DNA of 33,000 bases from Dicyema japonicum (taxonomy: Eukaryota > Animalia > Dicyemida), in the NCBI GenBank assembly GCA_011109175.1, contig RDEW01000047.1, positions 113,324-146,323 on the forward strand, read 5' to 3'. A program made the translations under genes and the position numbers. Shown here one piece after another: positions 2,176 through 31,600 of this stretch. The notes under the pieces are model-generated. The model ran no database searches, had not been told where the DNA came from, and worked only from the letters and a program-made list of their open reading frames with translations. The stretch's first letter is position 1; each line of letters begins with the position of its first letter.

Positions 2176-3682
2176 TCAAATTTTACTCACAACATTAACT
2201 CCCATTTCTTCATAATTTTGCCTAGAAATCCACATACTATGAAACGATCCCTAAAATAATAAACAGAGATCCAACCAATGAGGCCAGCACAGATCCCCCA
2301 ACCCAGGGACTGCATTGCACAAATCTCTTCTCGGGAGTATTCATGGGCGTATTCACCTTAATTTTTGTCATCTACAATAAACCCACGTGATATAACAGAA
2401 GATGTTCTTGCCGTCAATTCTCTATACAGTCTGTCTGAGAATCCAGGATAAACACAGTTTCCCCCAGAAATGAGAGTGTTAGCAAAAAGTGCCTAGAATA
2501 AATCCCACAACCAACAGGTCTAATGTCCACATCACTGAACCCAGCACTTGCCATCACCATCCCAACAATCCCAGTCTTTATATTAAGCACACCAAACCTC
2601 AATGAGGATTTCTGCCAATCTGTACCTATCCACCCCAAAAGAACGAATGAGTCCGTTCTGAAACTCATAACTGACTGTTTGCAGTCTTTCTGGGTTGCTG
2701 GGATAACCAAAACACGAACCACTCATAAATAGGATGTTCACAAAACCGTATTACCGAGGAAGCAAAGTCCCTCACAACATTCTACGTAAATTCACGGACA
2801 ACCATGGACATGAATTCTTTGTAGGAATCCGTCAAGTTGGGAACATTGCGTTTTGTAAAACATGGAATTTTCCCTTCGGGGACAGTCGTCTGGAGTAAAC
2901 AAGGCAAAAACCTTAGATTGAATAAGATAACAGTCGTTCAGATCAATCGACATGGAATTCAGAAGCTGTTGGGCTTTCTCAAGCATGGACCTCCCTGCAA
3001 ACGACATTCTGCGGACAGCTGGACATCAGAGAAATTCATACCGTTATTTAGGACATAGCCATCAAATACGGGGTAACTGCTGTGTAGGAATGACCACTTT
3101 CGATCACCAGGGCTGTGGACTTTCCATTGGCAAAACTACAATAACCATCAACCAAACGCTGTGAGAACGGAAGAAGGCCGCGAATAGTAGGCAGGCACAT
3201 GGAAAGTCTCGAACATTATTTGAAGGAGTTTTTCACGTTGAGCTTTGCATGTGTTCTGAAAGTTAGTAGAGAAACTACAGGTTGTTCAGACATGAAGACA
3301 GGATGTTCTGAGGATTCCGTTGAAAGTCCGTAAGAGTAAATATGGGAAACAAAGGTTTCAAAAAAATCCCAGTTTTCGACTATAAATCCATAATTTAATC
3401 ATACTTAGTCCATCACTGTTATGAAACTGTAAAATTTCTCGATTTGAAACGGGAGAAGTAAGAAAATTATTCCCACTATAACATTTTGCAACGGATTCGG
3501 GTCCGTCTGAAGTGAGGAGACTTCGATAGTCAAGCTGCAATTAAAACTGGGAAATACACAAGGCCACTCGTCACCAGCATACCCTATTTTAGTGCTATAG
3601 CTCCCAACGTCTAAAACGATGGCACCAATCTCATCTAATATTTGATGAATTTTGACCAACCTCCACCACAATATTGTCCCAT
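2176..3682 (-). CDS. ACTL6A: Actin-related protein 4 / BAF53 (ACTL6), 14 exons, ~400 aa
   Basis: Starts MGQYCGG|DEIGAIVLDVGSYSTKIGYAGDEWPC|; includes EHPVFMSEQP, EKLLQIMFETFHVPAYY, FANGKSTALVIESG, DVDIRP|ALFANTLISGGN, SPWVGGSVLASL|GSFHSMWISRQNYEEMG. There are 13 GT-AG introns of 26,23,25,23,22,23,22,21,25,22,23,25,25 nt. One base is missing in the G-run at 3070-3073 (the TPVFDGY frame needs one more C). Confidence 0.95.
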
Positions 3683-3784
3683 TTAAAATAATTTAAAATT
3701 ATAAAAATTATGAAATTTAAATTAATTTTTTAAAATAAATTCAGCTTATATACAAAGTGTAAATTCTAATTATTTGTCTCACCG

Positions 3785-8727: not shown

Positions 8728-9349
8728 TTTTAAATAAATAATATCGCGACATCTTGGTTTTTAAATAAATAATATTTGAAAATCCATTATTTCTACGGTA
8801 AAGAATTTGCGGTTGATAAATTTCAAAATTATCCATGTTAAACAGATTAAAAACATTCAGGTGTCATGAGAGATGTCCCTGAGTAACAGACGGGAAAGAA
8901 AAATCAATGAAAAATTGAATATTTGATATCTTCAGCATGTTTTCTCATAATCTTTGTGTTAATTGGATTACAATGTTGGATGAGGAAATTACATTGAAAG
9001 AGCAAAAATGTGGAAGTGAGTTCATGGCTTGGTTTTGGGCAGCAAATAGTTACAAGGACTAAGTTGTCCGGTTATCCAATCTTGTGTAGTGAAGGATGTT
9101 AAGAAAGAGGTTATAGAGGAATTCCGATATTGTAAAAAATTAAGGATTTTCGAATATTGAATACACTGTAATAAAGTTGACATTCACATAATTTCTTCAG
9201 AATTAAACAATCAACACGACATTGACATTGAGGTCGTCTATTGACAAACTTTTTAAAAAAATTACCCTTGTCAAATTGTTTGAGCTTTTGTACAGTAATA
9301 CAGTAGTTACTACACAAACTCAATATTTATATTAATTACTTCAACATAT

Positions 9350-9563
9350 AATAATAATAACAGCCTTTTTCACGGAGCCGTGGTATTAGCTCCGCATAGG
9401 CAGGACACACACTTTATTTAAGTAAAGAACAGTTAATTTTAACTAATCGTAGAACCAAGGAATGATCTTCACTTCTTTTTTTCTTTTTCTTGTGTGTGGG
9501 TCCTTTCTAGACAATCCAGTTCCGCAGTGAGAGTCCACTGATGACGGCGTCACTCGTCAAGCC
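9350..9563 (-). mobile_element. 214-bp SINE-like retroposon (second copy at 15655-15868)
   Basis: Flanked by a perfect 12-bp direct repeat ACTTCAACATAT (9338-9349 and 9564-9575). On the minus strand it begins GGCTTGACG and ends with a CGGAGC-N10-GCTCCG hairpin followed by a (TTA)n tail. Confidence 0.6.
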
Positions 9564-10289
9564 ACTTCAACATATTTAAAATATAATAACAAGAATAACT
9601 TTGTGGAATTTTTATATAAATTAGTAAATTGTTACCTTAATTTGTATAGTATATATATTCACATAATTATTACATGTATTTAAATAATACATTTAACAAT
9701 AACTGTTGTGTGATCTATACTTGTTTAATATTATTATGGAAGAGAATCGACTTGTTGAGAAAAGGAATATTGACAGTGAATTCCTCTATGAGAGGAGAGA
9801 TCGTCCATCGATTTGGATGAATATAGTGATTAGATCTGAATTTATTTGAATTTTTTTCTGATTTTTAATAATTCGTGATATTATTTATGTCTGAATCGAG
9901 TTAATTCCACGATTCCCTTGCTCGATGAGGTCTGTTCTCGGGACAAATCACAGCTTTTCTAAACTTTATGATTCTGAGATATCTCTAGTTAAACTAATAA
10001 TTTTCTTGTTCTTCATTAGATTTATCCATAGTTATCCAATTTCGTCAAGATTAGCATCCAATGCGTCTTTGTAAATAGCACATTCGGTATCACATGAGTC
10101 CGAGAAGGGGAACGAAAAGTTACATCAATATTTAGGAGATCAAGACATTTATTGTGTTAGAGCTGCGATTTGGTGAACAAGAACTACATCAGTGGTTCAA
10201 CCATTCAACAAATCGGCCACTAGGCTTACTGGTAAGTCACTCCATCAATCTCCAAATTTAACCGAGGAACCAAGCATATGATTACTATG

Positions 10290-10620
10290 GGAGATCAATA
10301 TTGTTTCTATGAAGTTAGGATAAATTTTCCAATTCTCAGCGACTTGGTGTTGTCATTGGGAATTATAACACAAATCTTTTGTTACAAAGCTATTTCAAAT
10401 TAATATTAAAATAAAGAAAATATGGAAACCTCGCTTAGGAAATGTAAGCCTGTAGTGGACTACTGGAGGATGGATTTGGTTGGCACAAACAGACGTTCCT
10501 TCCTTAGATTATATAGTTGTGATTGTTTGCCCGGAGCTTATCAAAGATTATAACCTCACGTGGTTTCCTCCAATTGATGGGGCTTGGGCATCACGTGGTT
10601 TCCTCAAATTGAGAAAAAAA
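10290..10620 (+). other. Possible N-terminal part of the endogenous mononegaviral L gene (also at 17040-17370)
   Basis: LLLQSYFKLILK*RKYGNLA*EM resembles rhabdoviral LLNIY..GD.I..RQGNFSYDL. TGG-G-CAT-CAC-GTG-GTT at ~10583-10600 resembles the conserved WGHPxV motif. The order is colinear with L, but similarity is weak. Confidence 0.35.
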
Positions 10621-10629
10621 TTTGAAAAT

Positions 10630-11490
10630 AATCTGAACGACTTATACATTCTCAATAACCCAAAAAGTCACATCAGAAGCCCGAACAGAGAATCGACTCT
10701 CCTATCTCAAGAAATATCAGTCTCTCCTCATATATCCTCGCCATCATGGAAGGTCATATATGAAATTTTCTCAGACCACAATATGATTTCGATTCAATAC
10801 AAACCTCTTTGACTTCCTCGATTGCCAAGATTAGTCTATAAAAGTCTAAATGTTCCACAAATATTAATATGTTCTCAATAATGTATTGATAAAAACTGGG
10901 AAACTCCATATCCAGCTGGATTAATATCAGATTATCAGCCAAACTTCACAAATAGCATAATATGCTTGATCAAGCAGAGGAAACTACTGAAGCACAAGAA
11001 TATCGACCCTAAAATATTAAGAGTTAATTTCGTGATCACTCAGAAAATAAAAAAAAATAAAAAAAATGAAATGGAAGGAGTTCATATTTTCCACAGACCA
11101 CAGAACCGAAAATAAAAATTATATCCACACCTTATTGACAGAGGCAATTACAAAAAAAGCCGATTGCTAGTATCAGGATCTATAAAATTGTTTTATTAAT
11201 CACTAAAAAATGTTACATACTTTATTAGAATATTGAAAAAAACTAGAATCAAAATCAGATCTTAAGAAAATCAACGCCAACAATGGATCGCTTCAAAATT
11301 AGTTATGAAATAACAATAAACGCCATTTGTCAACCAAAATTAGTTATGCTACTGGGACTGAAACAAATAGCTCGATCTACCACCTAAGAATTTGGAAATA
11401 TTGATACTATATCTTCCTGGACAACATCCTCCTAAACACTATTCTTGGTTGAAGGTTCTGCTAGAACGCGCCAGGATCAAGTAATTAGTT
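10630..11490 (+). mobile_element. LINE ORF2 fragment: APE endonuclease C-terminus, linker and RT start (also at 17380-18240)
   Basis: Reads NDLYILNN...SWKVIYEIFSDHNMISI (APE SDH motif), then IICLIKQRKLL...KWKEF, then ATGTE..SIYHLR. Confidence 0.7.
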
Positions 11491-11529
11491 AGTTGGGTTT
11501 AGTCTTTGGAATAATTTAATTAAGATAGT

Positions 11530-12210
11530 GCTTGGATGTATTCCATAATAAGGACCTAGAGAACACTCTTACATTTTTCTGAATCTCCGAATTTAAAAGA
11601 AATCTGTTAATGGGATTATCGATAATTCAAAATAACGATTACATATGCATCTCACATCGATTATTCAAAATGGTGCAACTATCAGAGGAATCAATTACCA
11701 CACCAATATTTGAACTTTTGGTTGAATAGTGTTTTCAAAACTCATGATATTTTTGAAAAATGTATTTACTATTATGATTGGCATACATTGTGGATGAAGA
11801 TCATGTATACACATAATATGAAAGATTTGTTTTCATTATTGAATGGACAGCTGGGGGGCTCGAAGGTTTAAGGCATAGATGATGGTGTGTGAATTCGATT
11901 CTTACGATCCTTGATAAATCCTGCAATCATAAATCATAAATATGATTGTTTTAGCTCTGGCTAATATCAAAATTACCTGTAGTACTCATCCTCTCTCATC
12001 CCCTGAACATTCTGAATCACAGAGTAGAGAACTCGAGATTTTTGAATAAAATGGTGAGAATAAAATTGGATTGAAAATGAAAAAGACACAGACATCACCT
12101 GCACTTATGGTTTATGGAAAAGTTCCAATGTTTACGGAGATGGCATTACGTGACACCAAAAGAATGAGTAGAAAAGCATCAATTAATAATTAAGAGGCAC
12201 CAAATCTCAG
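11530..12210 (+). other. Endogenous viral element: rhabdovirus-like L (RdRp) core, copy A, pseudogenised
   Basis: ASHIDYSKWCNYQR (11647-11688) matches VSV motif A ANHIDYEKWNNHQR. KTHDIFEKCIYYY matches RTHEFFEKSLIYY. GQLGGLEGLRHR*W (11845, one frameshift) matches GQEGGLEGLRQKGW. VLALANIKITC (11948) is a decayed VLAQGDNQVIC. KIGLKMKK..YGKVPMF..DTKRMSR (12062-12172) matches KLGLLIN..YGKIPIF..ETKRWSR. Confidence 0.9.
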
Positions 12211-12269
12211 GACAAAACAAAGAATAAAAATGAATTGATAATCTAGAAAAATATACCAATTTACAATAA

Positions 12270-14150
12270 CCAGCAGTATTCAAACTACGACTTCAAACAT
12301 CAGGAATCCGTCATATTATGTTTTCCGCCAAGTTAATTGCCTTTGATAAATGTAGAGGAAAAATTCGTCCTATTGCTGTTGGGTTTGTTTTTCGTCGATT
12401 GGCTTCTAAACTTGCTAGCAGAGCAATCCTTCCGATGCTTGTCAAACAACTGCGACCAATCCAAGTAGGGGTCGGTACTCCTGGTGGATGTGAGGCGGCG
12501 GTTCATGCCGTTAGGATGTTTACTGGAAACAGAACGAACATGCCTTGTGTGGTCTTCAAGATTGACATAAAAAACGCCTTCAATACCATACGGCGCGATG
12601 TAATTTTGGAAGATTGTCTTACCCATTACCCGTCTATATATAATTATATTCATTGTTTGTATGGAAAACCGTCCAGTCTTGTACATGGAGAAATACTTCA
12701 TTCCCTCGTCGTGTGGGTTCACAAGGAGACCCACTAGGACCGGCATTGTTCTGCCTCGGTGTCGACCGTGTCATGAGATGCCTTACTACTCCGCTGAACG
12801 TGTGGTATTTGGATGATTGCACCCTGGGAGGTCATCCTAACAATGTATATGACTGTCTACAGAGATTACTAACAATTGGATACGCTTGGTTTAAAGCTAA
12901 ACGCATCCAAATGCGAAATTGTTAATTATGGATTCTCCCGATATGAATGGAATCGGATCCTATTAATGTTTCGGGGGATTATTCCTAAAATATCGGAAAT
13001 CGAGCCGGATCATTTGGAAATACTTGGATGCCCTCTGGCTGAAACTGGAATTAACGACACTCTGTTGGCTAAAGAACAGCAACTAAGAAAAACTTTTTTA
13101 CGCCTTGGGATGCTGGATGCACATACCTCTCTTTTTCTCATGAAAAACGCTTTATCCACGCAGAAATTAAATTACGTCCTTCGAGGAGCTCCATGTTACC
13201 TGAAAATGCAACAACTCGGGGCGATTGACTCCCTATTCCGGTCTACGACCGAACGTATTACTAATGTCGAATTCGACGAACAAGGATGGGAACAAGCAAC
13301 CTTGCCCGTTCGCTTTGGTGGACTCGGAATTCTCTCACCATCTGATTTAGCACACCCGGCATATCAATCCTCATTGGACTCCAATCAGAATTTGATCATG
13401 ATGATTCTCCAGCTCCCATCAGAGTCGTCAAAGATCGAAGATTTGGTACACCCTAAAGTCAAACAACTCGGGCAGAGAGACCTTTATGAGTCTGTTTGCG
13501 AGGATAAATACGAGAGGCTTTTGAAAATATCTAACCAACACCGACGAGCCTGTCTTTTAACTGCAAGATGCGAGTGGAGCGGGGCTTGGATCAATGCCCT
13601 ACCCATTGGAAACGTGGGAACTCACCTAGACGATGAAACGGTCCGCACCGGAGTCTCCATCAGACTTGGATTGAAAGTTTGTCAACCCCATGAGTGCCGA
13701 TGCGGCCGGAAGGTCGACTGCTATGGACATCATGCCCTTTCTTGTCGAAAAAGCGCAGGTCGATTCGCTAGACACAAGGCTATAAATGAAGTGGTGAAGC
13801 GCACCCTCGAGTTGGCGGGATACCCATCCATTCTAGAGCCAACGGGCTTGAGTAGGGATGATGGGAAGCGACCCGATGGAATTACTGTCTTCCCCTTCTC
13901 TCGGGGCAAATGCTTAATTTGGGATGCTGGCTGTACTGACAGCTTTTCCCAGTCGAAACATTTGAGGTCGGCAATGAAAGCGGGAGAGGCCGCCCGTTTA
14001 TATGAAAACTCAAAAATAAAGAAATACAGGAGCCTCCTAAACCGTTTCCATGTACAGCCAGTGGTCGTCGAGACGAGCGGAGTCTTTGGCCCCAAGACGG
14101 TCTCTTTCCTTAGAGCACTTGGGTGTCTATTGACCAAAGCCTCGAGGAGC
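12270..14150 (+). mobile_element. CRE-clade non-LTR retrotransposon (RT plus restriction-like endonuclease), truncated at both ends, 2 frameshifts
   Basis: ORFs 12318-12737, 12653-12925 and 12876-14228 carry RPIAVG..RRL, QVGVGTPGGCEAAVHA, DIKNAFN, QGDPLGPALF, WYLDD, GLKLNASKCE, ATLPVRFGGLG, the C-x-C..H..C knuckle, RHKAINE, PDG and WD. The normal QRGNA terminus is replaced from ~14150. Confidence 0.9.
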
Positions 14151-14520
14151 GTCGGGAAAACTGAGTGGCTTGAGACTCTCGCCTCAAAATTGAAAATGAC
14201 GAAGGTCTCTTATACACCCAGGGCATAAACCATCCAACAACGTGACGTACGCAATCATCAACATATATATTTCTCCTTCAAGTTGCTCAAAAGGATATCA
14301 TTCTGACCTCGCTTGGATCTCGTCCCTTAAGAACATAACCGTGTGCGGAGACTTTAATGAGAGGATATTATCTTGACCTTTCGTCCCGGAAGAACCTGTC
14401 GATGGAAAAATGGATCAACGAGGGGAGTATATCTTGTCACAGACTGAAAGCCTTCAAGTCTTAAATCCTCGTGATCGTCTGATTAAATCTTTCGACAATT
14501 CTTTGTGCTCGTAGATTGTT
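14150..14520 (+). mobile_element. LINE APE endonuclease fragment
   Basis: Reads IINIYISPSSC, ITVCGDFN, DQRGEYI..LQVLN. Confidence 0.7.
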
Positions 14521-15600
14521 AGACTTTCCGTGAATTTGCTTAATGTTAAAATCTTCGCAAAGTTTTGTTATTTCTTGATTTTTAAATTCAGAACCATTGT
14601 CCGACTGAAGAAATTTACATGGCCCATTCAGGCGGAACAAAGATCTTACGTTTTCACATACTTCTTTACCAGACTTATTATAAAGTGGTCGTACAAAAGC
14701 GAATCTATAAATTAAAAAAAAACCCAGCCTACTATATATGTCAATGACCGTTAAAATCCATTTGAAATTTCATTTAATGTTGAAAATTTTTTCAGGTCTA
14801 TTAGATCTACCTGAAAACGTTCATTTGGAGAAGAAGCAAACACATGGTGATTTATATCTCCAATCTACAATTATAAAAATCACGAACTTTTAAAGGACGC
14901 AAAAATTTGCAGACTTCACAATTTCGAATGACTTTTCTAATAATCTCATTCTTTACAGTGAAGTATCTTTGTCGTCATTCATACTCAATTTTATTGACTC
15001 CTCCGTGTGAAAACTCGTGCAACGATTTCGCAACATGCTCCATTTCGGTTTCATTATCCAGGGATATGACTAACTTGTGATCAGTTGATTTAAGATACAG
15101 TCTAAAATTATTGAAAATTTACAATACCTGTCATTGATAATAGAAAAATTCTCTATCTTCTTTACATGCCTATATTTCGGTGCCTCGGAAGATTTTCGGG
15201 AAATTTATCATGCAAAGCATCAATCTTTCACAAAACCCTTGAAAGAAGCCATTGCAACAAAATAATCTTCCATGCTATAAATCACGCTAGAAATCTAGGT
15301 TTACCGCTATAAAAAATAAAATCTTTATAATCATAACATTTATGAATAAAAACTAATTTAACAGGATTAAATCACGATATAAATCGGATATATAAAATTA
15401 AATGTCGGATTATCCAATGAGGGACTCATCCTTACCTTTGTCGGTCTGGGATCACTTAGTTTAGATGAGAACTTTTTATTTCTTTTTTTTTGACCCAGTG
15501 ATCCTGGGGTAATAATAATAATGTCGGATAATCAAAAGACCTTTTCAAGGTCGAAAAAATGTAACAGGCTGCCCATGCGTTACGCGCCGCCCATGTGACA
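14520..15600 (-). mobile_element. Ginger-type (retroviral-like integrase) DNA transposon, 3'-truncated pseudogene with spliceosomal micro-introns
   Basis: The spliced minus strand gives an HHCC zinc domain (HEFSHGG...CEVC), PNERFQVDLID, WILTVIDIYSR|FAFVRPL and FLQSDNGSEFKN..IKQIHG. Introns 15127-15102 (26 nt), 14887-14865 (23 nt) and 14728-14705 (24 nt, GC-AG) restore the frame. Candidate ATG at 15273; candidate TGT terminus at 15600. It carries a premature stop and frameshifts, and the catalytic Glu region is missing. Confidence 0.85.
15418..15519 (+). mobile_element. ~100-bp 5'-truncated LINE 3' end with (TAA)n tail, inserted in the Ginger 5' region
   Basis: Nearly identical to 16315-16420. 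Flanked by AATGTCGGATTATCCAA (15401-15417) and AATGTCGGATAATCAAA (15520-15536), 2 mismatches. Confidence 0.75.
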
Positions 15601-18600
15601 TAATACAGTAGTTACTACACAAACTCAATATTTATATTAATTACTTCAACATATAATAATAATAACAGCCTTTTTCACGGAGCCGTGGTATTAGCTCCGC
15701 ATAGGCAGGACACACACTTTATTTAAGTAAAGAACAGTTAATTTTAACTAATCGTAGAACCAAGGAATGATCTTCACTTTTTTTTTCTTTTTCTTGTGTG
15801 TGGGTCCTTTCTAGACAATCCAGGTTCCGCAGTGAGAGTCCACTGATGACGGCGTCACTCGTCAAGCCACTTCAACATATTTAAAATATAATAACAAGAA
15901 TAACTTTGTGGAATTTTATATAAATTAGTAAATTGTTACCTTAATTTGTATAGTATATATATTCACATAATTATTACATTTATTTAAATAATATACAAAC
16001 CTTTCCACGATATACAAACAATTCATCCGACCAACGATGACGTATGCAAGTCCTTCATGGGCAATGCAAATGTCACGATCTTCCACATTGAAGTTATCTG
16101 CAATCGAGGAGACTGCAATGAGGTTAATTGGACAGACCACAACCATCCAACCTATTGAAAATTTTTAATTGAAATACAACGAAAACTATTAAAGGAGGCT
16201 GTTCTACGAGCTGCCCTCTATTCCAAATACTATCGAATTATCTACAATCATACAGAAATTGTGAGCCGATGCCATGTCCTATGAGAAGAGCTGTTCAGGA
16301 TTCTCGACCCCGCCGGACTCGTCCTCACCTTTGTCGGTCTGGGATCACTTAGTTAGATGAGAACTTTTATTTCTTTCTCTTTGACCCAGTGATCCTGGGG
16401 GTAATAATAATAATAATAATTTATTTAAATAATACATTTAACAATAACTGTTGTGTGATCTATACTTGTTTAATATTATTATGGAAGAGAATCGACTTGT
16501 TGAGAAAAGGAATATTGACAGTGAACTCCTCTATGAGAGGAGAGGTCGTCCATCGATTTGGATGAATATAGTGATTAGATCTGAATTTATTTGAATTTTT
16601 TTCTGATTTTTAATAATTCGTGATATTATTTATGTCTGAATCGAGTTAATTCCACAATTCCCTTGCTCGATGAGGTCTGTTCTCGGGACAAATCACAGCT
16701 TTTCTAAACTTTATGATTCTGAGATATCTCTAGTTAAACTAACTAATAATTTTCTTGTTCTTCATTAGATTTATCCATAGTTATCCAATTTCGTCAAGAT
16801 TAGCATCCAATGCGTCTTTGTAAATAGCACATTCGGTATCACATGAGTCCGAGAAGGGGAACGAAAAGTTACATCAATATTTAGGAGATGAAGACATTTA
16901 TTGTGTTAGAGCTGCGATTTGGTGAACAAGAACTACATCAGTGGTTCAACCATTCAACAAATCGGCCACTAGGCTTACTGGTAAGGTCACTCCATCAATC
17001 TCCAAATTTAACCGAGGAACCAAGCATATGATTACTATGGGAGATCAATATTGTTTCTATGAAGTTAGGATAAATTTTCCAATTCTCAGCGACTTGGTGT
17101 TGTCATTGGGAATTATAACACAAATCTTTTGTTACAAAGCTATTTCAAGTTAATATTAAAATAAAGAAAATATGGAAACCTCGCTTAGGAAATGTAAGCC
17201 TGTAGTGGACTACTGGAGGATGGATTTGGTTGGCACAAACAGACGTTCCTTCCTTAGATTATATAGTTGTGATTGTTTGCCCGGAGCTTATCAAAGATTA
17301 TAACCTCACGTGGTTTCCTCCAATTGATGGGGCTTGGGCATCACGTGGTTTCCTCAAATTGAGAAAAAAATCTGAAAATAATCTGAACGACTTATACATC
17401 CTCAATAACCCAAAAAGTCACATCAGAAGCCCGAACAGAGAATCGACTCTCCTATCTCAAGAAATATCAGTCTCTCCTCATATATCCTCGCCATCATGGA
17501 AGGTCATATATGAAATTTTCTCAGACCACAATATGATTTCGATTCAATACAAACCTCTTTGACTTCCTCGATTGCCAAGATTAGTCTATAAAAGTCTAAA
17601 TGTTCCACAAATATTAATATGTTCTCAATAATGTATTGATAAAAACTGGCAAACTCCACATTCCAGCTGGATTAATATCAGATTATCAGCCAAACTTCAC
17701 AAATAGCATAATATGCTTGATCAAGCAGAGGAAACTACTGAAGCACAAGAATATCGACCCTAAAATATTAAGAGTTAATTTCGTGATCACTCAGAAAAGA
17801 AAAAAAAGAAAAGAAATGAAATGGAAGGAGTTCATATTTTCCACAGACCACAGAACCGAAAATAAAATTTATATCCACACCTTATTGACAGAGGCACTTA
17901 CAAAAAAAGCCGATTGCTAGTATCAGGATCTATAAAATTGTTTTATTAATCACTAAAAAATGTCACATACTTTATTAGAATATTGAAAAAAACTAGAATC
18001 AAAATCAGATCTTAAGAAAATCAACGCCAACAATGGATCGCTTCAAAATTAGTTATGAAATAACAATAAACGCCATTTGTCAACCAAAAATAGTTATGCT
18101 ACTGGGACTGAAACAAATAGCTCGATCTACCACCTAAGAATTTGGAAATATTGATACTATATCTTCCTGGACAACATCCTCCTAAACACTATTCTTGGTT
18201 GAAGGTTCTGCTAGAACGCGCCAGGGTCAAGTAATTAGTTAGTTGGGTTTAGTCTTTGGAATAATTTAATTAAAGATAGTGCTTGGATGTATTCCATAAT
18301 AAGGACCTAGAGAACACTCTTACATTTTTCTGAATCTCCGAATTTAAAAGAAATCTGTTAATGGGATTATCGATAATTCAAAATAACGATTACATATGCA
18401 TCTCACATCGATTATTCAAAATGGTGCAACTATCAGAGGAATCAATTACCACACCAATATTTGAACTTTTGGTTGAATAGTGTTTTCAAAACTCATGATA
18501 TTTTTGAAAAATGTATTTACTATTATGATTGGCATACATTGTGGATGAAGATCATGTATACACATAATATGAAAGATTTGTTTTCATTATTGAATGGACA

Positions 18601-19002
18601 GCTGGGGGCTCGAAGGTTTAAGGCATAGATGATGGTGTGTGAATTCGATTCTTACGATTCTTGATAAATCCTGCAATCATAAATCATAAATATGATTGTT
18701 TTAGCTCTGGCTAATATCAAAATTACCTGTAGTACTCATCCTCTCTCATCCCCTGAACATTCTGAATCACAGAGTAGAGAACTCGAGATTTTTGAATAAA
18801 ATGGTGAGAATAAAATTGGATTGAAAATGAAAAAGACACAGACATCACCTGCACTTATGGTTTATGGAAAAGTTCCAATGTTTACGGAGATGGCATCACG
18901 TGACACCAAAAAAATGAGTAGAAAAGCATCAATTAATAATTAAGAGGCACCAAATCTCAGGACAAAACAAAGAATAAAAATGAATTGATAATCTAGAAAA
19001 AT
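15601..19002 (+). repeat. Segmental duplication, copy B (contains an extra 427-bp LINE insertion)
   Basis: Direct repeat of 9296-12252. The offset changes from 6305 to ~6750 across the insertion. Confidence 0.97.
15994..16420 (+). mobile_element. 427-bp truncated LINE insertion with TSD, present only in copy B
   Basis: Encodes IYKQFIRPTMTYASPSW...KLSAIEETAMRLIG and ends LCRSGIT* plus 3'UTR and (TAA)6. TSD TTATTTAAATAATA at 15980-15993 and 16421-16434; copy A has the empty site at ~9677-9689. Confidence 0.9.
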
Positions 19003-19940
19003 TTTAAAAATTATTATATTTGGCGTTGTGGAAGTTATCGTAATGAAACCGTTTTAGGCTTGCAGATTATTGCACTTCAATAAGATTACGGGTTTTTCTG
19101 TTAGTGTAGCCCGCTTTTATACTTAAATTATCTTATGGGCCCTGGAGCTTTTGAGTTTGACATGCCTGGTGTATATTATCATATATAATCTCTGCAATTT
19201 AAGTAGTTGAAGATCTTCTTGGTTATGATCCAATGTCATATGGTCCAATATAGAATGTATCCAAAATATAGATCTTAACCATGTCTGAAAGAGAAATTGG
19301 AGGAGTATCAAAAAATATACCTAAAATCCAGCAAATCAAATAGACACTCAAATTTTGGACAGAATGTCAAAAATCCCTCAATCGATCAGGGTTATTTGGC
19401 TGAATTGATTCTGCAAGACCTTGGCATAAAAACTTGGTGTTTACAAAAATCCTGCTATTGAAGTGAATTGAAAATACGGTTTTTACGAAAGAATGGCAGA
19501 GTAAATTGTTCTTAACGGTACATCAATATGTCCGGAGACCTAAAATTTTTTTATTGCGGAAGATATTTAACATGAACGTTAAAATTTCTCAATCTCGCGA
19601 AAATGTGGTGAAATCTCTTTAGACAGGACAAAAATGCTTTCATAGAGCAAATATCGATTCAATAAAACATTAGAGGATATTACAAGAAGGGCTGCCAGAT
19701 ATACTGAACCCATCGTCTATATTTTTTGGCAAATTGCACAATTCGAGATCTACAAAGGAATTGTTCTTCATAGCTGGATAAATATCGTAGCAAACTGGAA
19801 GCTAATCAGGGACTTCAACATAATAGAGAAATATGTTAATTCTCAGACCCAAATTCGTTAAGTCATTGAACGCTGTTAAAGATCTCTGGGAGACTGCTTC
19901 ATGCGAATGAGATCGGATTAATCCCTACTTATATGAATCA
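18280..19940 (+). other. Endogenous viral element: rhabdovirus-like L, copy B, running from the RdRp core into the capping (PRNTase) region
   Basis: Carries the same motifs as copy A (motif A at 18398), then colinear DLLGYDPM (19212; VSV LLMMHDPA), EREIGGVS (~19287-19310; DPSIGGVS), TLKFW (19344; SLSFW), NCSS*LDKYRSK/WKLI/GTST (19759-19820; [22 protein letters not shown]) and IGLIPTYM (19912; RGPLPAYL). Many stops and frameshifts. Confidence 0.85.
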
Positions 19941-20338
19941 TTATTTATTAGGATTACTTAGTTAGAGGAAAAAATGGTCCCCAGCTTACTAAATGATCCC
20001 AAAATCACCAGGGGAAAGTTAGGAGACCTGATTTTAGGTTGATCGCCCCCACAAATTTTTGTTTTTGTTCTAATAGGAGTGCTACCACAAATAAAGATTT
20101 GAAGTTGGAGTGACGCCTCTATTGTCAGCTTTTTGGATTTGGATTTTTTTATATGGGAGAACAGGAAATTTCCATTGACCCAACACACTTTTGTAGGTTT
20201 ATGTCGGGTGACATGTTGGTTATATATGGTGGATAAACAAATGCCATATCTCCAAAGCGAAAGGTCTTGGAAAGCAAAGTAGATTAGTAAATAGTTTAAG
20301 AAATTAGTGGACTACTCAATTTTATAGTAAGAAATATA

Positions 20339-21941
20339 TTAATCACTCCATTCATCAGAGGATTCACTATCATCGGAGACAAGTTCTTTATGACGATTTT
20401 CAATTGCCTTTCTTAGACTGGCAGCGAATCCACCCATTTCTTCCTTCACGCCAGCCTTAGTATTTTCCGTAACCTTGATATATAACCGAGGTTTTAAACC
20501 TTTTTTAAATCGACTCCTTTCTGGATACTAGAGAGGAGATCATTGATATTTGATGTAGGGGAATGGTTTACTAAATTTTTTACCAATGGTATATTGTTTT
20601 CAGAAGTTTCAGAAGATTCTAATTTTAAGGGTTTAGGAGGAAGAGGAGCAAATCCATCAACTTTTTCCTTCGCAACAGCCTTAGTATTTTCCGGAACCTT
20701 AAAATATAAAACCGAGTTTAAAACATTTTTTAAACCGACTCCTTTCCGAATGCTAGAAAGGAGATCATTGATATTTGATGTAAGGGGGTGGTTTACTAAA
20801 ATTATTTCCAATAGTATACTGTCTTCAGAAGTTTTAGAAGACGCTAATTTTAAGGGTTGAGGAAGAGAAGCAATCGCTTTATTTGGCTTATCTAAAAATT
20901 ATCCATTCGACAAACCTTGTTTTAAAACACGTGAAGTAGGGGGAGGAAGTGGTGGAGGGACGAGTTTACTTTCTTTCTGTTTTTTCTGTTCCTTCGGTGC
21001 CGTTTTGGTTTCATGTGATTTTGTATTAGTTGCTGGCTTAAATCGGTGTTGTTTGGATGGATTGTTTGAATTGAGAACTTCCGAGGTGGATAGTGGAATA
21101 TCTGGTGGGGGTGGTCTGTTTTCAATTTTGAGGTCGGATTTGAGTTCTAACAAATAATAAAACTTGAAATTTTTTCAGAGACTAATTAGTATACTTTTTC
21201 GATTGGAAGTTGCAGGGCCTTTAGGTTCACTTCTGTTCGTCTCGATGGAATCATACACTGAATTCAAATTATCAGAATTTTTGATTGTAGTTGGTTTGCT
21301 TCCATCATTTTTAATTTTTTCGACCAAACAAGACTCAATTTTGTTTTTTTTATTTTTTTCCTTTACTTTTCTGCTTTTAGGTGTTTCAGTGCCTGTCTTC
21401 GTTGGTTCTGGTGGATGGAGTTTTTCAACTTTGTTATAAAATACCTTTTACCACTTATTTTCGCTCGCTTTTTCATATTTTGGCTAAAGAAGTCAGCTTC
21501 TGCTTGGTGCATGAAGTTGAGACCATAAATAAACTTCTAATCGTTAATTGAAGCGTTACATTGGTTTCGAATGTGTGAAAGGTAGGGTTCAGTGTAGCGT
21601 AGTTGATATTCCTACCCAAAGTTTCCCGCAGCAAAATACGATCCTGTAATATTAAAAAACTGATACCTGGGGGATGGAACATAAATAAATTGAGTAACAA
21701 CGAGTTCTGTGGTCTTTGACGACCAAGGCAACCCCATCATCGTCAAATTCCCAACTGTCAAAATTTGACTTGCTGGCTCTGAAGATGCGAACTACTCCAG
21801 CACACAAAGACTAAGTTTTGGCCATAATAAAACTTGTCTCCCATTTCCAATAATTTTCATTAGACCAAGGTTATCGTCTTCAGACACAAAGGAGGACCCA
21901 CAATTTACAAGCTTGTTCCGGGTATAGACAGGAGGATTCAT
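20339..21941 (-). CDS. WASL: WASP/N-WASP family actin nucleation-promoting factor (WH1, basic, proline-rich, WH2 x2, central, acidic), ~453 aa, 10 exons
   Basis: Spliced WH1 domain: GNGRQ|SLCAGVVRIF..GVALVVKDHRTRCYSIYLCSIPQ|DRILLRETL..FHTFETN|KFIYGLNFMHQAEADFF. Two WH2 motifs (DLLSSIRKGVGLKN, DLLSSIQKGVDLKK). C-terminus FAASLRKAIENRHKELVSDDSESSDEWSD*. Introns of 23,23,23,23,48 (or 36),24,24,27,26 nt leave an intact 1362-nt frame. Confidence 0.92.
20424..20865 (-). repeat. Intragenic tandem duplication (period 225 nt) of the WH2 module of WASP, introns included
   Basis: The marker gagatc lies at 20761-20766 and 20536-20541. Both units share cccttaaaattag..tcttct, tagtaaacca, catcaaatatcaatgatctcct and ggaaaatactaaggctg. 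Confidence 0.9.
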
Positions 21942-22615: not shown

Positions 22616-23088
22616 AAGAAATAATGTCCAAATTAATTTTATTTTTCTAATTTTTATTATAATTTATTTCCCAAAATCTTCATGAAAACTACAAATAGGC
22701 AATCATTTTTAAATTCATAAAGAAATGACAAGACCCCTCAATTTTACTAACAGTTTTGCTTTGCACTCTCTCCACACTCTCTCCACACTCTCTCAACAGT
22801 TCGTATGTGAATATTACTGTCATTGGCGTCGATAAAATTTTCACAATGTTAACCCAACCGTTACTTGTAAAATACTCGTTTGTCAACAATTGATAAATAG
22901 CCGTTTTACTATCCACATTCTCTTTTACTTTTTTGCCTTCAAAATATGAAAAAACTAGTTTCAGAAAAACATTAATATCTATCTTACTAGTTTTTCTACC
23001 ATTCGACAGTATCTGAGGATTTTTCTTAAAAAATAATAAAATTTTCACAATTTTGAGTAATAAAATATTTAATAGTATTTCTGTTGTG

Positions 23089-23600
23089 ATGCCGTCAAAT
23101 AGATTATTAAAGGAATTAAGGGATTTAGAGAAAAATAAAGTACCCATAAAATTAAATTGTAGGTCGATGGTATAAAAATAGAAGTAATAGATGACTCAGT
23201 TAATACCCTTCTTGGATACATTCACGGATCTCCAAATTCACCGTTTGCTGGAGGAGCTTTAGAATTTTAATCCAAAAGAACAATTTTTATAGATTCAAAA
23301 AATTCAAAAAATTCAAAAAATCGATATTGCAGGTAGCGCATAGTTGCAAGTAGCGTTCGCGACATATTATGGCTGGCAAACAGCTCAGAAGCGACTATGA
23401 CATGTATGTCAGAACTGCACAATATTGGACTTATTACTACTCCAATGGTGATTTTGGTTGATTAAATGATAAGACCCAAATTGTGACGATACTTTCGCTG
23501 AAAAACACAAAAGTGTGATGGACATGGGATTTACCGCGAAAAAATCCATTCAACAAAGAATGGAACATAGCGGGGACTATTGAATATTTACATAATGATT
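23089..23600 (+). pseudogene. UBE2K: Ubiquitin-conjugating enzyme E2 K (Ubc1/E2-25K) pseudogene lacking the catalytic core
   Basis: MPSNRLLKELRDLEKNK|(23-nt intron)VDGIKIEV..LLGYIHGSPNSPFAGG then a stop at 23268-23270. It resumes as AGKQLRSDYDMYVRTAQYWTYYY|(26-nt intron)..VMDMGF../NKEWNIAGTIEYL (UBA domain, frameshifted). The HPN and active-site Cys region is absent. Confidence 0.8.
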
Positions 23601-23669: not shown

Positions 23670-24640
23670 ATCAAAAGTGGTCCCCGACATAATCGATGTT
23701 GCGTTGCCTCTCACCATTGCAAAGGAGCCACTGTGTCTAACGTGCGTCGTGGCTTTAAATGTAGCCAGACGTTTTATCTTCTGAAGGAAACCGGTCAAAC
23801 AGCACTTTGTATTTTTTTCTTGGTCTTCATAGCTTTTTCAGAGTATACAGAGTGTCCCGCGCTCCCGTCAATATTGGGCGGACAAAGAGGTCGATGCACG
23901 TGGCATTCCGTCAGGTCGTTTTCCGTCTCCTCTGTCCAAGCCAACGGTTCCAGTATGGAAGGGTATACATCAGACTCCAGGGATCGTTTCACAATTCCGT
24001 TTATCGCCTTGTCTTGGGAATCGTACTGCGCTTCGTCGGCAAGAAAGGGAATATGTCCTTAGCAGTCGACGGTACCACTTGTAAGCCTGGAAAATCTCCA
24101 AAGTATGATGGAGATACTGATGCAGACAGTATCGTCGTCAAGGTGGGTCCCGACTCTTCTGATCGGTAGGGCATCTATTCAAGCGTCACTCCATTCATAC
24201 TTTTCAGTGAAATACAGCCCTTAGTCCAATCATCCAAGTATTACAATTTTAAATGAGTAAAACAACATCCCGTAATACGACCCATTCCGAGGCTGAGTCA
24301 AGTGGATCTCTTTGTTTGACTCCTGATGACAAGGGAATGAAATATTGGCCTTGGAGTAGGTTGGACGTGTACTTAATTGTACACTTGAAAACAATCTTTA
24401 AAATTGCATCACGTCCTATTGAATGTCCGAACAGCATGAACTGCTGCTTCAAACCCACCAGGAGTGCCGACCCTTATTTTAGTTGATTGTAGCTGTTTAA
24501 TAAGCGCGGGAAAGATTGCTTTGCATGCGAGTTTTGAGTGATTCTTTTCTTTTCCCTTGAAGAAACTGCTCTTTCAATACATTCGTGTGTGCAGTCCGCA
24601 ACAGATATACGGGTAGCTTTGGGAATCCTGATCAGGAACC
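23670..24640 (-). mobile_element. Degraded, internally deleted CRE copy (same family as 12270-14150), retaining the 3' end
   Basis: Reads SKLACKAIFPALIKQL..VGTPGGFEAAVHAVRTF, SGVKQRDPL, YLDD, DALPIRRVGTHLDDDTV, DKAINGIVKRSLE..YPSILEP, VRGNATSIMSG. Confidence 0.85.
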
Positions 24641-28234: not shown

Positions 28235-28513
28235 TCAATCGGCTTCCTCATCAAACTCGGTGGATGAGTGGCAATCAGAATTTCTTTGACCTTCAGACCC
28301 GTCAAAAAATAAATCGGAATCACAATTTTCTAGATTTTTGCATTCTTCAATTTTTGAGGAATTCAAAGAAGAAACATAACTGTTATATCGTTCATAAGCA
28401 GCGATAGCGAAATATAAAGGATTTGGACATTGCCATGAATAGTGATCTTTCGAGTGACATTTTTGGCAATGATTTTTTAAAAGTGTAATTTTTTTAGCTT
28501 TCCGCTCCTCCAT
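28235..28513 (-). CDS. Small intronless CCHC zinc-knuckle protein (ZCCHC10-like), 92 aa
   Basis: MEERKAKK..CQKCHSKDHYSWQC (CX2CX4HX4C) followed by a Ser/acidic tail, with an AT-rich upstream tract. A gag-like origin is not excluded. Confidence 0.5.
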   Translation of the reverse strand: MEERKAKKITLLKNHCQKCHSKDHYSWQCPNPLYFAIAAYERYNSYVSSLNSSKIEECKNLENCDSDLFFDGSEGQRNSDCHSSTEFDEEAD

Positions 28514-28673
28514 TAACAATCCAATAAGCAGGAATATTTTATTAAATTTTTTAAATTTAAATAAATTTATAGTTAATATAATTAACTTTAAAAATAATAA
28601 TAATATTAAAAAATTGTTTTTAAATCAATTTGACTCTATACACTATACATTTAAATTATTATTTTTAAGATAC

Positions 28674-31600
28674 TAATTGGTTGAGCTGGTGACGTGGCTC
28701 TATTGCACACATGTCTTTTTCGTGCTTTTCTTCGGGATCTTTCACTATTAGCTCGTTCAATGTAAGAGGATTAAAGTCGGATACTAAAAGAAGAAATTTA
28801 TGCGTGGATCTTGGATCGTACAAGGTAACCGTGGCGTGCTTACAGGAAACGAAAGTAAAAGGCGGACTAGATGAAATCAACAATGATTTCCGCCTGATTC
28901 TGCACCCTTCAAATTGCCCACACTACGGCATGGGATTTGCAATACAAAAAGAACTGAACAATCGAATCCACAAGACGTGGAGGGTGAGCGATAGAATATG
29001 TGTTTTACAATTAAAATACGGTGAAAGGAACAATTCCATGATCTCCATTATTAATGTATATGCACCAACTTCGGTGAGAGTATCAATCAATGGAGACGAA
29101 CTAGACGACTTCTATTCCTCCCTGTCGCAACTATATGCATTTTTGGAAACATCGTTCATGACATCCATTGCCGGAGATTGGAACGCGAATGCAGGACGTG
29201 GGAGTAGTCACGAAGAATTCATGGGAAGCCATGGAAGGGGATCAGGAACCATTCAGGAGAATCGCTTATCAAATTTTGCAATACATTCAAACTATTTCTA
29301 TGCAACACTGCTTTCAGGCACTCAGCAAGACATAAGACGACATGAAGCTGCTACCGTAAGGACAAATCTGGGACTATCAAGCCTATATATAACCAAATAG
29401 ATTACATTATCTGCAAACAAGCCTACAAGGCACTGCTAACAGATTCTCGGAGCTACAGTGGGACACTAGTAGATAGTCATCACAGATTGGTCGTGGCATG
29501 TTTCTTTTTCAAACGATATTTTGGGGTTTCCAAAGCGGCTGGCATGATGATATCTGAGGGGAGGTTCGCAGTAGAGCAACTCTGCATGGTGGGACCGACT
29601 CGGGAAAGCTATCAAAATACATTGAGAGAAAAGATCAGACAGTGGAATAAAGAAAAAATGCCTGGGGAGCTGTGGCAAGACACCATCGAGGCAATAAAGT
29701 GCGCGGCCCATTCAACAGTCGGAGTAAAACCAAAGCATTTCAACGGGCACTATGACCACGAGCTTGAAGAACTATCCAAATTGCAGAGGAACCTACGTTT
29801 ACAGGTCAAAACCTGCCAGGACCAGGCAAAGGGACACAGTCTAAGAGTCATGCGGAACCAAACCCTGTATAAAATAAAGAAAAAAACGAGGGAAATAAAG
29901 GAAAATAAACTTGCTGGAATGGCTAAAGAAGTAGAAAGACTCAAAAACGGAGCGCAGATGTTCAAGGCTGTTCACCTACTACATAGAGACACGCAGTCAT
30001 CAAAAATCACTATTCATGATCAGTTTGGAAAGACTATGTTAAACAAAAATGAAATTCTATCGGCCATATCCAGCCATTATCAGCACGCCTTCAATCAAAA
30101 CCACGGAGAAAAAATCAAACAATTCGATGGTGAAGCACGAGAACTAAATATTCCGATAACGATTCTGGAAACAAAAAAATCCCTGGACAACCTGAACACA
30201 ATAGAGCTGCTGGCCCTGACAACATAAATGCAGAACTTCTCAAATATGCACCTACCGAGATCTAAAGGCCCCTTAACGAATTTAAGACCCATCGTACTAT
30301 TGACGACTCTACGCAAGACACTATCACTTATAGTGCTGAACAGGATTGGATCTGACATCGAGAACTTTCTCTCTCACGGTCAAAGCAGATTCAGGTCAGG
30401 AGATCTGGGACATCGATGGCTTTGTGCAACACATCAAAAGTACAAGGGGGCTATTGGCATCCTTGGCATGGACATGTCCAAAGCCTTTGACTCTATACAC
30501 AGAGGGAGACTTTTGGATATCTTGGAAAAGTTGGTTGACGAGGACAGTGTCAGAATGATCCGTCTATTACTTGGAACAACGCAGCTAAGTGTACGTTTTG
30601 GAAATTTGGAGTCTGTCCCATTCGAGACAACGTTCGGAGTACCGCAGGGAGATTCCTTGTCACCGGTACTTTTTGTGACATATCTGGAGGCGGCACTCAG
30701 AGACTTCAGACTATTAATTGGCGATCTACCTCAAACTGAAGTGATTTATGCAGATGATATCGACTATATATCCAGCGACGAGAAAACATTAAACTATATA
30801 CGGACAAGGATGCCAGATGTCCTAGAAAAATGGTTCATCAAAATCAATACGGAAAAGACGGAGACAACTACCATACGCCGTGAACTAACCCGAACTGATG
30901 AAAAATGGAGATACTGTAAAAAATTGGGGTCGTTGCTCGGAGACGCTGAGGATATCACTAACAGGAAGATGTTGGCCGTCGCGGCCTTTAGAAAAATGGG
31001 AGTAGTCTGGAATCATCGTAAACAAATTAGCACACAATTACGTGTGAGACTATATAATGCCTTCGTGAAACCAGTCCTAATGTACAACGCTGCAACCTGG
31101 GGTGTCTCAGAAGCGGTAATGGACAAACTAGATGCCTTCCATCGTAAGCAACTCCGACTGTTGCTTGGCATCAACTGGCCGAAAAAAATTACAAACAAGA
31201 ATCTATACAAAGTATGTAATACAAGACCATTGAGTCTGGATATCCTGGAATCAAGATGGCGTCTGTTCGGTCACATCCTTCGAATGAGCCAGATGACGCC
31301 TGCTAAAATAGCAATGGATAACTATTTCTGCCCAAAAGTAAATACCTCGTTCCGTGGAAAACCTCGCATAATTTTGCCAGAGGTTCTACACAAAGACCTG
31401 ACCAATGTAGGACGAAAGCTGAAAACTGGAGATGATCTGGATACGCTCGGAATAACTGCCTGTAACCGCGGAGCATGGAGGAAGTTGGTCAAGAGAATTG
31501 TGGAAAAAAATAACCTGAAGAAAAATACGGCACAAGCGGAACCTTAATTAAATAAATTACATTTTTGGTTCTTCGAAAGTGCTATTAATAATAATAATAA
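28674..31600 (+). mobile_element. Near full-length RTE-clade LINE (APE endonuclease plus RT), with frameshifts, (TAA)n tail and 11-bp TSD
   Basis: Endonuclease: SFNVRGL, ACLQETK, INVYAPT, AGDWNA, QIDYI, SDHRLV. RT: RPIVLLTTLRK, DMSKAFDSI, GVPQGDSLSPVLF, YADDI, KKLGSLL, RLFGHILRM. TSD TTTTAAGATAC at 28663-28673 and 31601-31611. Confidence 0.95.

Follow-up and report, generated by a model that had tools for sequence, protein, structure and literature searches.

The window, a stretch of 33,000 nucleotides, contains a genuine fossil of a rhabdovirus L gene. The remnant at 18386-19395 (+) is very probably a non-functional endogenous viral element, comprising about 1 kb of L (RdRp core and thumb, VSV 597-932) in sense orientation within host DNA. 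At least 336 codons of L from the donor are represented, in the same order as in VSV. The first-pass annotation had proposed that L runs past the end of copy B of a duplication at 19002, in the expected order, and a thumb segment at 19173-19395 bears this out.

Frameshift-aware alignment recovered L homology with stops and frameshifts, in two parts separated by a host repeat (Table 1). The remnant is surrounded by transposon debris, the window being rich in reverse-transcriptase and integrase remnants. It is embedded in host DNA, as contigs from sequencing runs of unrecorded library type cover 18942-19706 and 19640-21500 at flank depth.

VSV numbering follows P0108, in which G1154, T1157, H1227, and R1228 are at their literature positions. 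Results against shuffled sequences and host windows are given as the number of controls scoring as well out of those run, zero meaning that no control did so. All p-values are uncorrected, and many parameter sets were tried. The frameshift-aware forward model was calibrated on the core only, and its general profile includes 82 L proteins.

Table 1. Features located in the window (positions in the window; strand; basis or remark).
Feature	Position	Strand	Basis or remark
Actin-related host gene, GT-AG introns 22-25 nt	2237..3700	-	Actin profile
Copy A of RdRp core	11635..12208	+	no thumb segment; repeat ends at 12252, at start of non-LTR retroelement
High-copy non-LTR retrotransposon (RVT_1) adjoining copy A	12253..14300	+	
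Insertion private to copy B, 425 bp, retroposon 3' end	15994..16418	+	(TAA)n tail, ~16-bp target-site duplication
Copy B of repeated stretch	16419..19002	+	98.8% to 9674-12252; L homology undetected upstream of 18386
L remnant, RdRp core, motif A-E region (VSV L 597-808)	18386..18958	+	frameshift-aware alignment
Linker	18959..19054	.	L homology undetected, 245/500 shuffles
Dispersed host repeat, ~120 bp, inside L remnant	19055..19175	.	depth and loose contig ends
L continuation, thumb subdomain / block IV (VSV L 833-932), with DLLGYDPM, IGGVS, LKFW	19173..19395	+	profile tests
DLLGYDPM	19212-19235	+	
IGGVS	19296-19310	+	
LKFW	19347-19358	+	
Possible further L remnant (bridge, perhaps PRNTase start)	19396..19940	+	two mutually exclusive readings
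CSS*LDKYRS	19762-19791	+	
GLIPTYM	19915-19935	+	

RdRp core

The core aligns as nine pieces spread over three frames and is interrupted by in-frame stops, frameshifts, and short deletions; the catalytic GDN of motif C is absent. Its score of 130.9 bits was equalled by 0/100 shuffles and 0/290 host windows. Mononeg_RNA_pol (PF00946) matched one of the nine frames scanned, in 18014-19003, with an E-value of 5.6e-5, a match that falls short of the curated cut-off. The core matched rabies L 610-825 (E 1.6e-8) and VSV L 598-808 (E 1.5e-5). Among 1.84 billion representatives searched, 19 proteins reached E<=1e-3; all are L-like, and the eight of these that were domain-scanned are full rhabdovirus-type L. 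A word-index search with the core frame gave no match in a search set lacking full-length L, and the IMG/VR scans yielded nothing closer to the query proteins than 36%.

The metagenome scan gave one match, a VSV-like L fragment unrelated to the remnant described here (contig L145, 1323-2990). This frameshifted fragment is 52-65% identical to VSV L 349-855 and has non-viral flanks; it is another endogenous rhabdovirus element, distant from the one at 18386-19395.

Candidate L sequence upstream of 18386 was tried and rejected. Anchored alignments were matched by 161/500, 322/500, and 210/500 shuffles; unanchored ones were matched by 27/400 and 16/400 shuffles, but by 55/187 and 52/187 host windows. 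Pfam gave no match to other viral genes in 16402-18012, and the look of a LINE endonuclease at 17380-17560, noticed by eye, was not confirmed.

Repeated stretch and neighbouring retroelements

The core lies in a repeated stretch in which 9674-12252 corresponds to 16419-19002 at 98.8%, with a further correspondence between 9296-9689 and 15601-15993. Run contigs spanning the site of the 425-bp insertion lack it. It is evenly poised whether copies A and B form a true duplication or represent one locus whose two haplotypes were placed in tandem by the assembly. Depth data came from four runs (X1-X4) of one sample in one study. The depth of the repeated stretch (X1 400.7, X2 34.1, X3 21.8, X4 18.1) is near that of the unique part, which for major plus minor contigs is 303+76 and 304+100 in X1, 27-31 in X2, 23 in X3, and 19-20 in X4, as expected of haplotypes, although contig depth is not copy number. 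The contigs combine letters from A and B, their insertion site is empty, and one A/B site is split about half and half at a single-copy total depth. Nevertheless, only 0.83-0.86 of the sampled words occur in the runs, whose sequence matches neither copy exactly; the material may therefore stem from other individuals, and the assembled individual may carry a duplication of its own. The junction between copy A and the retroelement was settled neither way by the run contigs.

The first-pass annotation regarded copy B as the more complete record. Copy B does carry about 100 more L codons than copy A, but it is possibly an allele, and if A and B are haplotypes, its greater completeness means merely that haplotype A was cut by the retroelement.

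The C-terminus of the retrotransposon at 12253-14300 is presumably CRE-like. A related high-copy non-LTR retroelement lies at 23905-24537 (-), and we take its look to be CRE-like as well. For both, the nearest Atlas clusters are eukaryotic, and the few recorded members come most often from sponges. The window also harbours a LINE ORF2 that is close to complete, encodes endonuclease and reverse transcriptase, and is divided into three open pieces at 28693-31547 (+), beside a zinc-knuckle ORF at 28235-28624 (-), and a second short retroposon 3' end with a (TAA)n tail at 15422-15522. The Atlas search found no usable match for 22692-23195.

Linker and host repeat

An exact 30-mer at 18942-18971, at the end of the core, is common to a second locus with unlike flanks and is possibly filler DNA or a captured piece. 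A gapped partial match of 18954-19032 was found at another locus. The dispersed host repeat that follows, which the first-pass annotation had missed, has a depth 6-7x that of its flank, with loose ends at 19055, 19099, 19117, and 19175 when contigs are compared at 80% likeness. The repeat length equals the offset of about 40 codons seen in the downstream L matches.

In X3 and X4, about one quarter of the depth belongs to a minor haplotype without 19024-19560 (537 bp). In X1 the major and minor contigs stand at about 3:1, which suggests pooled or polyploid material. At three sites the runs and the window disagree by one base, and thus some frame breaks could reflect alleles or mistakes in the assembly.

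Continuation of L into the thumb

At the level of sequence, 19173-19395 was shown to correspond to VSV L 833-932, continuing L past copy B. In unanchored tests, two relative-weighted profiles scored above every control (0/500 shuffles and 0/282 host windows for the first, 0/400 and 0/187 for the second). Anchored, the general 82-protein profile gave 0/1000 shuffles, and each of three profiles, one of them built without the nearest relatives, gave 0/500 shuffles and 0/198 host windows. When 58 L positions were scanned as anchors just past the host repeat, VSV 832 ranked top (z 4.1; next independent peak 2.1). This predicted anchor was equalled by 4/1000 shuffles and 3/144 host windows, its position having been chosen after the offset of about 40 codons had already been observed in the motif chain. 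The signal is confined to 19176-19420 (0/1000 shuffles), with 726/1000 for 19421-19700. The score rose from 10.2 to 16.3 bits with relatives picked from the core tree.

Other settings gave lower values. The general profile, unanchored on the downstream stretch, was matched by 22/300 and 55/300 shuffles (-3.1 bits for the latter), relaxed settings of the frameshift-aware model by 4-15/100, and the unanchored thumb block with the clade held out of the profile by 28/500. The hhalign probability of the thumb is 8%, and its score is below the 53-79 bits expected at decay equal to that of the core.

It is very improbable that nothing viral lies past 19002 and that the motifs seen there arose by chance in AT-rich sequence. 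Such an explanation would fit the blank results of standard single-frame searches: tblastn of 19 L proteins against 19003-19960 gave no match at E<=1, the best hmmsearch piece downstream of 19002 had an E-value of 16, Pfam gave no match in the three + frames past 19002, and PDB none in two of the three. It would also fit the one false chain of like score that arose, in which 19003-19960 appeared as a permuted N-terminal piece of L (284-571). At first this chain gave 0/100 shuffles and 8/114 host windows, and it disappeared with better profiles (173/300 and 233/400 shuffles). That it had scored equally well shows that chains assembled by eye can mislead at this strength; order-only motif chains were likewise unstable with parameters (0/200 to 111/200). 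Against chance, the thumb exceeded all shuffles and host windows, unanchored, with two relative-weighted profiles, and it stands at the position predicted from the host repeat.

The first-pass annotation had proposed HMMER profiles as the check. Plain HMMER on single frames found Mononeg_RNA_pol on the core, but no Mononeg_mRNAcap and nothing downstream of 19002, where the continuation is visible only by frameshift-aware alignment.

The motifs that it named are all present on the + strand, at 19212-19935, in three frames full of stops. At the L columns implied by that annotation, among about 940 sites, four motifs ranked first, GLIPTYM second, and LDKYRS fourteenth. Taken singly, the motifs were matched in 1000 shuffles by 39 (DLLGYDPM), 12 (IGGVS), 179 (LKFW), 134 (CSS), 181 (GLIPTYM), and 1000 (LDKYRS). 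The idea of colinear L motifs thus stands for the first three, which jointly mark L 833-932, but the last two are within chance.

Capping domain and the stretch 19396-19940

In the VSV cryo-EM structure the Cap domain is drawn as residues 866-1334, the GG motif of block IV belongs to the thumb, and PRNTase follows a poorly conserved bridge at 939-1070 (PMC6636387). The claim that L reaches the mRNA-capping domain therefore depends on the boundary used. Residues 866-932, which fall inside this broad structural Cap, are aligned within 19173-19395, but a match to PRNTase proper is not demonstrated, its scores being at chance level in these sequence comparisons. PF14318 gave no match in the three + frames of 19003-19994 and shorter pieces, searched as single frames. 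Unanchored PRNTase columns were equalled by 245/300, 52/300, 83/500, 176/400, and 349/400 shuffles, the first of these values belonging to VSV 1069-1334 by the general profile, at -3.7 bits; VSV 1154-1334 against 19003-20300 gave 275/300.

The individual PRNTase motifs gave a similar picture. The blocks for motif A, motifs B-C, and HR were matched by 152, 389, and 318 of 500 shuffles, where 19-48 bits had been expected. The words [YW]xGSxT and PHP and the motif A pattern are absent from every + frame of 19003-20400. For motif A, Rx(3)Wx(3-8)PhixGxzetax(P/A), the value of 152/500 came from a frameshift-tolerant block, and a post hoc hard anchor gave 7-13/1000 shuffles. No word of the form (Y/W)PhiGSxT, motif B, was found, and a tentative ungapped match retains its Y and G only. 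Motifs C (W), D (HR), and E were not found in order, a positioned HR being absent and the HR block standing at 318/500.

The first-pass annotation also read W..I.GT as the GxxT motif. These letters correspond to PRNTase motif A, which contains G1100, and GxxT is motif B, G1154-T1157 (PMC4705655). Neither CSS..KYRS.W..I.GT nor GLIPTYM rises above chance as L. The bases of CSS..KYRS..GT are also used by a competing reading of motifs B-C, and GLIPTYM is VSV-like, but the nearest relatives read PYLGS there.

L sequence likely extends further, to about 19770-19900, in a form too eroded to place. Two mutually exclusive readings of 19396-19940 were obtained, and both are only suggestive. The first keeps the diagonal, placing VSV ~1019-1043 at 19713-19766 and ending near 1088 at ~19911. 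For it, 19701-19800 against VSV 1019-1043 gave 3/500 shuffles, and 19701-19940 gave 8/1000. The second allows long deletions, with ~965-1059 at 19396-19696 followed by the motif B-C region, 1152-1192, at 19751-19873. It includes an ungapped match of 40 codons to Triaenorhabdovirus 2 L (P0006), with 13/40 identities and an E-value of 0.011 for a single pairing chosen post hoc, inside a stop-free stretch of 71 codons. This segment gave 6/500 shuffles with a clade-only profile and 6/500 to 43/500 over two clade-containing profiles; it gave no match when the profile lacked the clade, and 10/198 to 40/198 host windows scored as well. At best, the whole stretch was matched by 12/400 (Viterbi) and 31/400 shuffles and by 25/193 and 57/193 host windows, and 19396-19696 is without signal (726/1000 and 370/500 shuffles). 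Because the bridge is described as having no highly conserved residues, a blank would be expected even if bridge sequence is present (PMC6636387).

That further L sequence in 19396-19940 includes PRNTase motifs, as in the full claim of an integration running through the bridge into PRNTase with motifs surviving at 19750-19940, we consider rather doubtful. The claim would be favoured by the 13/40 match to the motif B-C region, by the values for 19701-19800, 19701-19940, and the whole-stretch Viterbi, and by hard anchors at 19762 or 19884, which gave 5-13/1000 shuffles. However, each reading assigns the same bases to another part of L, and at least one of the two must therefore be chance; the chain to L 284-571 had also beaten 100/100 shuffles before it was lost with better profiles. 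The null-level motif A, B-C, and HR blocks, an hhalign probability below 1%, and the host windows that equalled the ungapped segment argue against the claim as well.

That L stops at about 19395 (VSV 932) and that 19396-19940 is unrelated host DNA is possible, if somewhat on the unlikely side. Under most settings the forward scores stay within the null range (151/500, 178/500, and 253/500; 75/400 and 36/400), as would be expected of host DNA. Yet several clade-like words occur in order within the stretch, most tests put its scores on the high side of the null, and it is single-copy at 80% likeness, unlike transposon debris.

Donor lineage

In the core tree, based on 212 columns, the element groups with P0001, Triaenorhabdovirus 2 (P0006), and Beihai dimarhabdovirus 1 (P0011). 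Support for this four-member group is 100/99 with 33 rows and 98/99 with 29 rows, both sets being subsets of the 91-row tree, and the element has a branch length of 2.5. The best tree suggests that the donor was close to Beihai dimarhabdovirus 1 and Triaenorhabdovirus 2, although placements with lyssaviruses, P0003, the trematode group, and Schistorhabdovirus were unrejected by AU tests (p 0.36-0.45).

Triaenorhabdovirus 2 and Beihai dimarhabdovirus 1 are Betaplatrhavirus species in Table 17 of PMC12451637, while PMC12282299 treats the earlier genus only. The element clusters with these two members at 98-100/99 on a long branch, and the genus itself is split in the 33-row tree. Together with P0001, the pair gave the best single-sequence scores on the core, and the loop before GG in the thumb is short in the element, like that of P0006 and P0011 and unlike that of VSV. 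In contrast, core identity to the pair is only 37-39%, and its members are exogenous viruses whose assigned hosts are flatworms or animals infested with worms, whereas here there is only an endogenous L fragment. Beihai dimarhabdovirus 1 came from pooled fish gills, and its host is open because the flatworm reads in the pool were too few to assemble (PMC9241645).

Host lineage

The host gene at 2237-3700 (-), presumably ARP4-like, contains four candidate GT-AG introns of 25, 23, 22, and 23 nt, two of which separate successive positions of the Actin profile (103/104 and ~139/140). An automatic intron-finding script was too permissive and was not used as evidence. Among 51 animal genomes, such introns are described only in myxobolid myxozoans and a dicyemid, and ciliates and microsporidia are the non-animal cases given (PMC13644364). 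Tiny introns in this one gene suggest that the host is a myxozoan (myxobolid) or a dicyemid, the gene being tied to the L element through the assembly alone. A broken proline-rich gene at 20423-21450 (-) contains a 225-bp tandem repeat that harbours two actin-binding WH2 motifs (PF02205, E 3.7e-9).

Origin and comparison with known elements

The element would have arisen when viral RNA was copied into DNA by a host retroelement reverse transcriptase and then integrated, and PMC6379468 offers a precedent for retroelement-mediated reverse transcription of viral RNA in such elements. A single integration would later have been split by the host repeat of about 120 bp, and neutral decay would have brought stops, frameshifts, and deletions. 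Retroelements lie near the element, but no integration trace (poly(A), target-site duplication, or retroelement-virus junction) was identified for it, its ends being undefined; for the same reason an mRNA and a genome template cannot be told apart. Erosion by deletions, as the first-pass annotation described, is seen, and stops contribute too. Its "long stretch of L" is overstated, as the viral span shown is about 1.0 kb, or 1.5-1.8 kb if either tentative downstream reading holds. This is an ordinary length for such elements, inside the 151-3206 bp of mosquito integrations (PMC6379468).

Similar to the Rhabdoviridae L nrEVEs, or NIRVS, of Aedes (PMC6379468), the element is a partial L with a broken frame in a transposon-rich setting and within the same size range. 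The L-like host proteins of Lepidoptera (P0153, P0163, and P0176) are likewise nrEVEs derived from Rhabdoviridae L. Unlike these arthropod elements, the one described here likely resides in a tiny-intron animal parasite, not an arthropod. It is also far more decayed (39% best core identity, end branch 2.5), and in the best tree its donor lies outside the insect dimarhabdoviruses. With the Cap (PRNTase) of VSV and rabies L (PMC6636387, PMC4705655, PF14318) it shares the broad-Cap residues 866-932, but PRNTase motifs A-E are not demonstrable and the catalytic HR is absent. The bornavirus-like eEBLL-1 of bats (PMC4865735) is also a Mononegavirales L in a host genome; however, it is reported to retain an intact frame of 1,718 codons, whereas the element described here is dead.

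In the open literature, including PMC11097642, no report of a rhabdovirus fossil in a myxozoan or dicyemid was found, though supplements of EVE surveys may list the locus. There is slightly less than an even chance that the element is the first rhabdovirus fossil from the genome of a myxozoan (or dicyemid) and that it descends from the Beihai dimarhabdovirus 1 and Triaenorhabdovirus 2 lineage. The extension of L past the duplication has no function and merely brings the fossil from about 0.6 kb to some 1.0 kb. The weight of the finding lies in the likely host and the donor lineage, not in the capping claim. Endogenous fragments link a virus lineage to the germ line of a host, which metagenomic pools cannot. 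If the assignment is true, a "flatworm" virus lineage also entered the germ line of a non-flatworm parasite, and viruses detected in fish-gill pools might have gill myxozoans as their true hosts. If the genome is that of a myxozoan, the proposition that myxozoans host rhabdoviruses would be directly testable through myxozoan RNA data.
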